Assembly (NCBI GenBank): GCA_902617375.1
Contig: CACMWI010000006.1
Location: 17,306-81,305 of the forward strand
Direction: 5' to 3'
Source: an uncultured Alphaproteobacteria bacterium
Lineage (GTDB): Bacteria > Pseudomonadota > Alphaproteobacteria > Methylaequorales > Methylaequoraceae
Length of the DNA: 64,000 nt
The notes beneath the pieces are model-generated. The model had not been told where the DNA came from. It ran no database searches and was given only the letters and a program-made list of their open reading frames with translations. Of this stretch, positions 41,183 to 42,357 are shown piece by piece. The stretch's first letter is position 1. Each line of letters begins with the position of its first letter. Made by a program: the position numbers and the translations under genes.

Positions 41183-41806
41183 ATGAAAAAAAAATCATCA
41201 GAATTAGATTTCCTTTCTTCTTTGGAAGATGGAAAAGAAGTAACACAACAATTGATTTCAAAAAAAATTTCGGTTTCTATCGGTTTTGTAAATGCTTTAA
41301 TTAAAAAATTTTTAAAAAAGGGTATTATCAAAGTTCAACAAGCTCCATATAAAAGATTCATATATTATGTAACACCAGACGGATTTTCTCAAAAATCTAA
41401 ATTAGTTTTGGAATATCTTACTGATTCTCTATCTTTATTTAGAGCACTTAGAAGTGAGTTAAATCTAGTTTTTTTTAAAAATAAAAATATTAGTTTTCTT
41501 TTATATGGTATCAGCGAAATAACTGAAATTGCAATTTTATCAGCCAATGAAGCAAATGTAAAAATTGATGGAATTTTGGACATTAACTCCAAAAAAAAAA
41601 ATCATTTAAATTTTCCAATTATTAATAAATTACCAAAAGATTTAAAAAATAAGAAAATTATTATTTGTTGTACCAAAAATGCTCAAGAAATTTACTTTGA
41701 ACTAATTGAAGAATTTAGTGAGGATAGAATTATAGCAATTGATTCCCTTTTTATTAGTAAGAAAAAACCAAACTTTAAACCGGAAAATAATTATGAAAAA
41801 AAATAA
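41183..41806 (+). CDS. Winged-helix (MarR-like) transcriptional regulator with a C-terminal Rossmann-like domain, EPS-locus type
   Basis: wHTH-like segment VTQQLISKKISVSIGFVNALIKKFLKKGIIKVQQAPYKRFIYYVTPDG. Positioned directly upstream of, and overlapping, the NusG paralog. Confidence 0.55.
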   Translation: MKKKSSELDFLSSLEDGKEVTQQLISKKISVSIGFVNALIKKFLKKGIIKVQQAPYKRFIYYVTPDGFSQKSKLVLEYLTDSLSLFRALRSELNLVFFKNKNISFLLYGISEITEIAILSANEANVKIDGILDINSKKKNHLNFPIINKLPKDLKNKKIIICCTKNAQEIYFELIEEFSEDRIIAIDSLFISKKKPNFKPENNYEKK

Positions 41807-42302
41807 TTTTTCTTGGTATGTTGTTATGAGTAAACCGAATCAAGAGTCACGAGCAATAAAAAATTTGCAAAATCAAAATTTTGACGTTTTCTGTCCGTAT
41901 TTTGAAAAAGAGTATGATTCTGGAAATTTAACAAAAATCATAAAGGGTTACTTATTTCCCTCATATATTTTTGTAAAATTAAATATTAAGAGTTTAAATT
42001 GGCTAACAATTAAAAATACATTTGGTGTAAAAAAAATTCTATCCTTAGGAAATTTTCCTTCAGAGATTGAAAAAAACTTTGTGGAAAATCTTAAACTGAT
42101 TTCTAATGATAATGGTCTTTTAAATGAGAGCCTTTTTTCATTTAAACCAAATCAAAAAGTGATCATCACTAAGGGGCCATTTAGAAAAATTTTAGGAGAG
42201 GTTATTTCACTCGTTGGAGATAAAAGAATAAAGATTCTTCTCGATTGTGTGAACGATTATAAAAAAATAATTTTGGAAAAGACAGATATTCTTCCAAATT
42301 AA
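41793..42302 (+). CDS. RfaH/UpxY-like specialised NusG paralog (NGN + KOW domains)
   Basis: The track ORF starts at 41739; the ATG at 41793 gives MKKNNFSWYVVMSKPNQESRAIKNLQNQNFDVFCPY (NGN pattern WYxx...E..A...L). LFPSYIFV is also present. KOW segment PNQKVIITKGPFRKILGEVISL. The overall pattern parallels E. coli RfaH. Confidence 0.8.
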   Translation: MKKNNFSWYVVMSKPNQESRAIKNLQNQNFDVFCPYFEKEYDSGNLTKIIKGYLFPSYIFVKLNIKSLNWLTIKNTFGVKKILSLGNFPSEIEKNFVENLKLISNDNGLLNESLFSFKPNQKVIITKGPFRKILGEVISLVGDKRIKILLDCVNDYKKIILEKTDILPN

Positions 42303-42342
42303 AAATTCTATTTATATTTGTAGTCTCTCTATTTTTAGTGAG

Positions 42343-42357
42343 ACTGCGGTAGCTATG
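42343..42357 (+). promoter_or_regulatory. ops-like element, copy 2 (ACTGCGGTAGCTATG)
   Basis: Identical to 20291..20305. It lies 40 nt downstream of the NusG-paralog stop and 14 nt upstream of the epimerase ATG. Confidence 0.55.

Follow-up and report, generated by a model that had tools for sequence, protein, structure and literature searches.

An RfaH-like NusG paralog and a conserved hairpin plus ops-like element at the head of glycan gene trains in a SAR11-like genome

A 64,000-nucleotide (nt) stretch of DNA from an uncultured alphaproteobacterium (contig CACMWI010000006.1; hereafter, the window) carries two long plus-strand trains of genes for glycan synthesis, and between them a compact regulatory cassette in which a marR-like winged-helix gene is followed by an overlapping gene for a specialized paralog of NusG and then by a short element that resembles the ops site of Escherichia coli. 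We call the genome SAR11-like because of its 28% GC content, marine and Tara sources, and relatives that are single-amplified or metagenome-assembled genomes (MAGs) bearing Alphaproteobacteria or Rickettsiales labels. A first-pass annotation of the sequence had proposed RfaH-type antitermination of a glycan super-operon of ~40 kb, with ops-like elements in the leaders of both trains. The evidence that follows supports an RfaH-type module, while antitermination itself is something we infer. In our judgment, the locus is quite probably a module of RfaH type that controls transcript elongation in a cell-surface glycan island.

The affinity of the paralog is clear. As the first-pass annotation had it, the 169-amino-acid product starting at 41793 is NGN/RfaH-like, matching the Pfam NusG NGN family (PF02357, E=7.7e-17, 62 bits) and aligning from end to end with the RfaH model TIGR01955 (103.7 bits, residues 8-165 on model positions 1-157 of 159). 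RfaH ranks first among the NCBIfam models, ahead of UpxY (67.7 bits), housekeeping NusG (53.9 bits), and LoaP (52.5 bits, the weakest of the four families), and these last three scores lie below the respective cut-offs of 100 (NF033644), 135.7 (TIGR00922), and 125 bits (NF033641). RfaH is likewise the top model for all 126 of the nearest relatives of the paralog, so that grouping with housekeeping NusG, the outcome named beforehand as fatal to the proposal, is not what we found. A profile search of the PDB with 30 homologs agrees, with 58 bits for RfaH chains and at most 39 bits for NusG. The neighbors of the gene are the marR-like gene and an epimerase gene, not secE/rplK. Because housekeeping NusG belongs to a separate L1-L11-NusG block that is universally kept in Pelagibacter genomes (10.64898/2026.04.03.716430), the window gene is an extra NusG paralog. 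Its family is small and marine, comprising 38 clusters in a search of 5.8 billion proteins; in a library clustered at 50% identity it forms one cluster, followed by four more at ~140-148 bits and then by >2,000 RfaH-like clusters.

Individual residues further characterize the paralog, which shares 26% pairwise identity with E. coli RfaH. The RNA polymerase-contacting residue F56 of E. coli RfaH corresponds to F60 of the paralog and is invariant in 126 of 126 sequences, and in the alignment K10 (here K14), Q13, Q24, and T72 are retained. The Rho-contacting loop of NusG, I164-F165-G166, is missing from the C-terminus, which reads C/F-V/I-N/T at this place as judged by alignment only. Both the high-affinity polymerase contact of F56 and the loss of the Rho-binding loop are traits of RfaH (PMC7593976). 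At the position of E48, the window paralog has G and most relatives have E. Most of the 109 nearest RfaH-like proteins from outside SAR11 have asparagine at positions 20 and 23 and tryptophan at position 66, and the commonness of N at 20 and 23 outside the enterobacteria fits the order of events put forward by Wang et al., in which K10 is older than RfaH and R73 is a later arrival (PMC7593976).

The KOW motif that had been read from the sequence stands in part. In the PDB profile search, the 50 C-terminal residues of the paralog align with the KOW region of RfaH and NusG, and a five-stranded barrel is predicted there, whereas the Pfam KOW model reported no match in the paralog. Given a 126-sequence alignment, AlphaFold2 (AF2) returned a model with a predicted local distance difference test (pLDDT) score of 85, in which the C-terminal domain is a five-stranded beta-barrel (pLDDT 80-86); with the shallow alignment of 30 close homologs, the same domain fell below pLDDT 50 and was uninformative. 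Foldseek matched the whole AF2 model to recruited RfaH (8phk_P) and to NusG, and matched autoinhibited RfaH through the NGN domain only. By the criteria of a 2026 preprint (Tabilo-Agurto et al. 2026, PMC13015549), the predicted beta C-terminal domain and the location of the gene next to a long polysaccharide operon would place the paralog with the "monomorphic" RfaH homologs. These make up ~14% of the total; their genes lie within or next to long lipopolysaccharide (LPS) or polysaccharide operons, and action in cis is proposed for them (PMC13015549).

The second component of the module is the element itself. The 15-mer ACTGCGGTAGCTATG that first drew attention to the leaders indeed occurs exactly twice in the window, at 20291-20305 and 42343-42357, both times on the plus strand, with the right copy beginning 40 nt past the paralog stop codon. 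No third copy with up to two mismatches was found in the window, where the expected count is 0.02, and the only further GCGGTAG, at 63367 on the minus strand, falls within a tRNA gene of the rRNA operon. Treating this 15-mer as the element was right as to its core, which equals positions 2-9 of E. coli ops, but not as to its limits. The conserved unit is 34 nt long and consists of a covarying hairpin of ~9 bp abutting an invariant 12-mer, TGCGGTAGCTAT, in which T11-G12 of ops is not conserved. The right element, 42323-42356, scores 49.8 bits with a covariance model of this unit. In sequence, the left stem (GTGATATAT/GTATAACAC) and the right stem (GTCTCTCTA/TAGTGAGAC) have little in common, and yet the left one keeps its pairing. 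Besides rRNA and tRNA, no Rfam family reached its gathering score in the window, and a search of 42250-42420 with E up to 10 returned only noise. We rejected a reading of the hairpin as an intrinsic terminator, since no T-run follows it and neither leader has a terminator-like call on the plus strand; the lone such call in the left leader region is on the minus strand, within an epimerase remnant.

The left copy of the element stands among decayed remnants. The segment 20083-20470 is a decayed duplicate of 42140-42540 (~65-70% identical) that preserves pieces of the paralog C-terminal domain and of the epimerase N-terminus. The remnant of the C-terminal domain, with its in-frame stop, upholds the earlier suggestion that the left leader has lost its cognate NusG gene, and no intact paralog gene lies beside the left element. 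A perfect run of 15 nt within a duplicate of ~400 bp is not significant alone, and thus the case rests on other genomes. Nevertheless, the left element has stayed intact while the coding remnants on its flanks decay. The keeping of an orphan element amid decay argues that the paralog may act also in trans, and such trans action is the one feature that fits the published cis-acting picture poorly.

Related loci for comparison were drawn from species-representative genomes, metagenomes, and assemblies encoding particular homologs. All SAR11-type loci have the same order, namely a marR-like gene for a protein of 206-213 amino acids, the overlapping paralog gene, a short spacer, and plus-strand sugar-nucleotide and glycosyltransferase genes. 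In 20 of the 21 distinct loci with enough downstream sequence, a distance of 41-86 nt separates the paralog stop from the coding-strand 12-mer TGCGGTAGCTAT, among paralogs that are 43-94% identical and within spacers that are otherwise unalignable. Its sole sequence variant is TGTGGTAACTAT (L015, 1002-1013), in which C3 has become T and G8 has become A together, so that the base pair is kept. Conservation at orthologous islands, a test named in the first-pass annotation, was therefore found in 20 of 21 informative loci, and the element was absent elsewhere in the 316 kb that we scanned.

The hairpin is conserved as a structure. All 21 distinct sequences upstream of the 12-mer fold into stems of 5-10 bp that end 0-2 nt before it, with a mean dG of -5.5 kcal/mol against -1.2 for shuffles; 76% of the variants reach -4 kcal/mol or lower, as do 5% of random 26-mers from the window. 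When 12 variants were placed in an anchored 34-column alignment, 82% of the cells of the 9-pair stem were paired, compared with 62% for column shuffles and 46-57% for slid partners, and eight of the nine pairs had changed on both sides, figures to be read in the knowledge that the stem structure was derived from the same sequences and then tested on them. With a plain MAFFT alignment of leader sequences as input, in which the stems were misaligned, RNAalifold found only a 2-bp mini-hairpin inside the 12-mer; the anchored alignment and a covariance model were needed to recover the upstream hairpin. This model, R1, was built from the 12 variants. Scanning 316 kb of related DNA with it gave 23 matches of 24-51 bits, all at the expected position after the paralog, on the coding strand, and once per locus, in addition to the left copy in the window (41.4 bits); the next-best score was 14.8 bits. 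An exact 14-mer search of viral contigs gave at least 120 matches, almost all of them due to chance and lacking both a hairpin and a NusG gene. As a negative control, 80 of these chance occurrences scored at most 27 bits with R1. One genuine phage-like locus emerged from the same scan.

The invariant 12-mer can be compared with E. coli ops (GGCGGTAGCGTG) base by base. In the structure of Zuber et al., ops forms a small hairpin in the non-template DNA that is closed by C3:G8 around the loop G4-A7, and T6 is flipped into a pocket formed by H20, R23, Q24, and R73 of RfaH, whose ops-contacting side chains are K10, H20, R23, and R73 (PMC5995543). G4, G5, A7, and G8 are essential for recruitment of RfaH, a C3G+G8C double swap partly restores it, and T11-G12 drive the pause (PMC5995543). 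Positions 2-9 (GCGGTAGC) are identical in the two elements, including C3:G8 and the loop bases G4, G5, T6, and A7, and the double change in L015 preserves a pair that is important for RfaH recruitment (PMC5995543). In both systems, a 12-nt element on the non-template strand sits in the leaders of long envelope-polysaccharide operons and is accompanied by a specialized NusG paralog that has RfaH as its top model and that keeps F56, K10, Q13, Q24, and T72. The systems also differ. Here an abutting RNA hairpin is obligatory, whereas the pause at E. coli ops is of type 2 and involves no hairpin; the paralog gene heads its own target, whereas rfaH is monocistronic and located elsewhere; and the C-terminal domain is predicted to be beta, whereas that of E. 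coli RfaH is alpha-helical. We suggest that the hairpin acts as a nascent-RNA pause hairpin and that it replaces the absent T11-G12 pause signal.

The motif is also found with much more divergent RfaH-like genes. A gammaproteobacterial MAG has the canonical GGCGGTAGCGTG in a divergent leader ~340 nt upstream of an RfaH-like gene (L008, 5650-5661, minus strand), and two distant RfaH-like loci have GCGGTAGC nearby (L022, 2096-2107, and L006, 2118-2125, minus strand), one of them a GC-rich metagenome contig on which GCGGTAGC lies 116 nt downstream of the RfaH-like gene. Phage-like contigs L076 and L161 bear GGGAC-TGCGGTAGC near an RfaH-like gene. In the high-GC contig L076 (944-1700, equal to L160), GGGAC-TGCGGTAGCTAT lies 80 nt after an RfaH-like gene whose product is 22% identical, and is followed by a terminator-like hairpin (CCCGCC..GGCGGGTTTTT) and then by terminase and portal genes; the close relatives L161, L162, and L163 have the motif variants TGCGGTAGCCGT or TGCGGCAGCTAT. 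From its sequence, L076 has the appearance of a late-gene antitermination switch of the RfaH/ops type, with this 12-mer as its ops. Because the 12-mer stands beside divergent RfaH-like genes, its link is with the RfaH-like protein rather than with SAR11 or the marR-like gene. Its recurrence in such company suggests a widespread, uncatalogued "TGCGGTAGCTAT" class of ops.

Around this core, the module has a partner gene and a distinctive promoter. The marR-like protein has an N-terminal winged helix, scores 50 bits against MarR_EPS (TIGR04176, cut-off 88), and matches Pfam MarR and HTH_24 weakly. Its C-terminal domain of ~100 amino acids has faint NeuD/PglD_N-like and NanE-like matches and might sense nucleotide sugars; a PDB sequence search with the protein found no relative. 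The last TGAAWTTCA box upstream of the gene yields a -35 hexamer, TTGAAT (41148-41153), which together with the -10 hexamer TATAAT (41170-41175), 7 nt before the marR-like ATG, forms the region's best sigma-70-like site, matching at 10 of 12 positions. Three to four such palindromes with 14-bp spacing precede the marR-like gene in every related locus, and across loci (L024, L029, L030, and L036 included) only 5-9 nt separate a TATAAT-like -10 hexamer from the ATG; the mRNA for the marR-like protein and the paralog may be leaderless or nearly so. Arrays lie at 9329-9372 and 6137-6175 in L024, 70-100 and 1258-1290 in L030, and 12-50 in L036. L030 and L032 have a further array between paralog and hairpin, which would put the hairpin at the 5' end of the transcript, and in L024, L025, L034, and L035 an array stands at a different operon, one without an ops element. 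The TGAAWTTCA array, not the 12-mer, is likely the operator of the marR-like protein.

The two trains consist largely of closely packed genes. The statement that most neighbors are 0-90 nt apart or overlap is accurate for 26 of the 33 junctions, and the other seven measure 102-545 nt. With seven internal gaps of more than 100 nt, "~40-kb super-operon" is an unproven description. The DNA of the island has 26-28% GC, and the end of the right train abuts an rRNA operon on the minus strand (60200-64000: partial 16S, two tRNAs, 23S, 5S, and a further tRNA); trains, adjoining rRNA operon, and low GC are consistent with the hypervariable glycan region of SAR11. Two paralogous AsnB-like amidotransferases are encoded in the island, at 39191-41080 (the end of the left train) and at 44620-46476 (early in the right train), as is a radical SAM/SPASM enzyme (46750-47856). 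In L027, a relative with a 91%-identical paralog, synteny with the window takes in the regulatory cassette and the end of the left train. The long "pilon" contigs L034 and L035 (also L024 versus L025) contain many split genes and truncated paralogs of 131 and 92 amino acids, which look like long-read frameshift errors and not true pseudogenes.

Table 1. Coordinates of the regulatory features and gene trains in the window.
Feature	Coordinates	Strand	Remarks
RfaH-like specialized NusG paralog, NGN + predicted beta-barrel KOW	41793..42302	+	169-amino-acid open reading frame
Right-module hairpin GTCTCTCTA-TTTT-TAGTGAGAC	42323..42344	+	dG -8.4 kcal/mol, z=-5.1 vs shuffles
Right-module ops-like 12-mer TGCGGTAGCTAT	42345..42356	+ (non-template/coding)	15 nt before first-gene ATG
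Left-module orphan hairpin GTGATATAT-ATTT-GTATAACAC + TGCGGTAGCTAT	20271..20304	+	covariance model 41.4 bits
Paralog C-terminal domain pseudogene remnant FNFTPKQKIKVWSGSFIRRLGEVIDLVGK-stop-RVKLLLNFLNNRKK-stop	20083..20217	+	in-frame stop; aligns to 42130-42300
Epimerase/dehydratase N-terminus pseudogene remnant KGKNFLVTKGAVFIGSYYVKEILQRDVKK-stop-...	20320..20470	+	GxxGxxG destroyed, frameshifted; intact homolog 42372-43337
marR-like winged-helix gene, 207 amino acids	41183..41806	+	overlaps paralog start by 14 nt; syntenic in all relatives
Promoter/operator array, TGAAWTTCA every 14 bp	41107..41175	+	boxes start at 41107, 41121, 41135, 41149
Left-module TGAAWTTCA array + promoter	19976..20049	+	~220 nt upstream of orphan hairpin-ops
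Left gene train, 16 genes	20480..41080	+	carbamoyltransferase, aminotransferase, acetyltransferases, epimerases, glycosyltransferases, ABC exporter, AsnB-like amidotransferase
Right gene train, 16 genes	42372..60121	+	epimerase/dehydratase, DegT aminotransferase, AsnB-like, radical SAM/SPASM, ABC exporter, glycosyltransferase, methyltransferase, others

We envision that these parts would work together as follows. The sigma-70-like promoter within the phased TGAAWTTCA array would drive the marR-like gene and the paralog, and past the paralog stop the polymerase would transcribe the short hairpin and then TGCGGTAGCTAT. When the last bases of the 12-mer are being copied, the end of the hairpin would lie 10-12 nt behind the RNA 3' end and could produce a hairpin-stabilized (type-1) pause. 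The 12-mer would then be exposed on the non-template strand, where its GCGGTAGC core could form a C3:G8-closed DNA loop of the kind that RfaH reads. The NGN domain would bind the paused complex, displace housekeeping NusG, and travel with the polymerase, suppressing pausing and Rho-dependent polarity across the long plus-strand train; RfaH itself excludes NusG and suppresses both pausing and Rho-dependent polarity (PMC7593976). The orphan element upstream of the left train would be served in trans by the same paralog.

The closest precedent for such a composite signal is the class-1 opsX of UpxY, for which a nascent-RNA pause hairpin and a non-template-DNA hairpin have both been established experimentally (Saba et al. 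2024, PMC11213015). Counted on the paused RNA, the opsX pause hairpin reaches positions -12 to -9; acting with NusA, it gives UpxY time to bind (PMC11213015). A hairpin that ends 0-2 nt before the 12-mer fits this geometry if the pause falls at positions 10-12. The resemblance to the class-1 system of Bacteroides fragilis extends to a non-template-DNA hairpin of the GCG..AGC type and to a paralog encoded within the glycan or capsule operon that it controls. In Bacteroides, however, the site is upstream of the Y gene, which is followed by a gene for the anti-Y protein UpxZ, whereas here the site is downstream of the paralog and an epimerase gene comes next; no UpxZ-like gene is evident at our locus, and a marR-like gene precedes the paralog. 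The site sequences are also unlike, and the UpxY model scores only 67.7 bits where its cut-off is 100.

Several observations weigh against an RfaH-type module, and against parts of the mechanism just described. The paralog falls short of both curated RfaH equivalog cut-offs (103.7 versus 144.5 bits for TIGR01955 and 75.6 versus 124 for NF006534), and this sub-cut-off score comes with the low identity to E. coli RfaH noted above. Three of the four ops-contacting side chains are changed (H20 to N24, R23 to N27, and R73 to F/L/Y/H). Positions 10-12 of the element read TAT and not GTG, so that T11-G12 has become A11-T12. One locus, L021 (5504-5913), whose paralog is 57% identical, lacks the hairpin-ops element altogether and has its next gene ~55 nt past the paralog stop. 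The R1 scan covered ~316 kb of related DNA, not whole genomes. The internal gaps of 200-545 nt in the trains could hold independent promoters. Finally, a C-terminal domain that is predicted to be beta and not autoinhibited is tied to cis-only action in the work on monomorphic homologs (PMC13015549) and would sit awkwardly with service of the left copy in trans.

Alternative explanations of the element must be considered alongside these points. The 34-nt unit could be read as RNA in the manner of LoaP, with the KOW domain or another factor binding the hairpin and the single-stranded 3' tail UGCGGUAGCUAU, and with the likeness to ops being incidental or ancestral. Such a read-out would accord with the covariation of the hairpin, which shows selection on the transcribed structure, with the loss of three of the four DNA-contact residues of E. 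coli RfaH, and with proposals that the KOW domains of LoaP-type and some UpxY proteins bind RNA hairpins (PMC11213015). We nonetheless consider it unlikely, as 12 bases are invariant with a match of eight out of eight to a core that is read as DNA, the sole variant is a C3/G8 double change that suits a DNA mini-hairpin, LoaP is the poorest of the four family matches at 52.5 bits, and the same 12-mer follows 22%-identical RfaH-like genes whose upstream hairpins shift position. DNA read-out by an RfaH-like NGN domain is thus the reading that we prefer.

Alternatively, the element may be a cis signal unrelated to the paralog that owes its position to conserved synteny only, for example, an internal promoter with an RNA-stabilizing 5' hairpin, an operator of the marR-like protein, or an RNA-processing site. 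The 12-mer does contain a 6-bp palindrome, TAGCTA, and the element always accompanies the marR-like gene as well as the paralog, but the phased TGAAWTTCA array is the better operator candidate and occurs at promoters that have no element (L024 at 6137). In L030 and L032, a promoter-like TTGAAT-16-TACAAT just upstream would place the hairpin at the RNA 5' end, whereas the 12-mer itself has no -35/-10 architecture. Together with the identity to the ops core at eight of eight positions and the recurrence of the motif by RfaH-like genes in other phyla and on phage-like contigs that lack a marR-like gene, this leaves an unrelated signal with quite a low probability. Least credible of all is the notion that the two 15-mers are a functionless leftover of segmental duplication. 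The left copy does lie inside the ~400-bp decayed duplicate of 42140-42540, and at ~68% identity a perfect run of 15 nt in 400 columns is not very improbable. Yet the 12-mer is invariant in 20 independent loci, with paralogs down to 43% identity and intergenic DNA that cannot be aligned, and the left hairpin has changed in sequence while retaining its pairing. We reject chance or a duplication relic on the grounds of this cross-locus conservation and return to an RfaH-type module as the reading that best accommodates the locus.

LoaP is a NusG paralog of Bacillota and Actinomycetota that binds a leader RNA hairpin. Like LoaP, the paralog is encoded beside its target operon and has a leader hairpin as part of its site; it differs in that LoaP is its weakest family match (52.5 bits, cut-off 125), and we know of no ops-type DNA core described for LoaP. 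Monomorphic RfaH homologs are proposed to be targeted in cis, co-translationally and independently of sequence (PMC13015549), whereas here a conserved ops-like site follows the gene, and an orphan site 22 kb away would imply sequence-specific action in trans. Wang et al. found 18% of RfaH matches in Alphaproteobacteria, with envelope-biogenesis neighbors and with recruitment modes left undefined, and associated their cluster CL4 with HTH regulators (Wang et al. 2020, PMC7593976). Our locus resembles their clusters CL2-CL8, and CL4 especially, in its envelope neighbors, its adjacent HTH regulator, the presence of K10, and the absence of R73 as in early-branching forms; the difference is that recruitment sites are not defined for those clusters.

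The circuit itself is of a kind known before, as RfaH-like genes adjoining envelope operons have been reported from Alphaproteobacteria (PMC7593976). We found no literature linking RfaH, ops, or antitermination to SAR11; what we found on Pelagibacter NusG concerns the housekeeping gene only, and on Pelagibacter antitermination PMC2704228 proved off-topic, while other titles looked unrelated. The module is real, well conserved, and of a known type, with a putative function in elongation control, and the present analysis is the first to define its cis-element. SAR11 genomes are well known for how few regulators they encode, and their hypervariable glycan island is regarded as shaping the way the cells interact with phages and grazers. 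The putative 34-nt loading site can be defined precisely and so offers something concrete to search for when delimiting transcription units in that island, and the element and the paralog together offer a testable handle on the expression of 20-kb AT-rich operons. Furthermore, an enterobacterial ops core, a pause hairpin in the style of Bacteroides, and a C-terminal domain that is probably not metamorphic come together in this natural RfaH-type system, which should be useful for testing the order of steps that has been proposed for the evolution of RfaH. A bolder proposition, which we hold only tentatively and regard as doubtful, is that a predicted monomorphic RfaH-like factor uses a sequence-specific composite signal of RNA pause hairpin and non-template DNA and serves an orphan site 22 kb away in trans. 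If true, specific recruitment in trans would have evolved without a fold switch, contrary to the current stepwise model, and the factor, its marR-like partner, and the phased operator array would together place expression of the hypervariable glycan island, in the most abundant bacterium of the ocean, under a single switch at the level of elongation.

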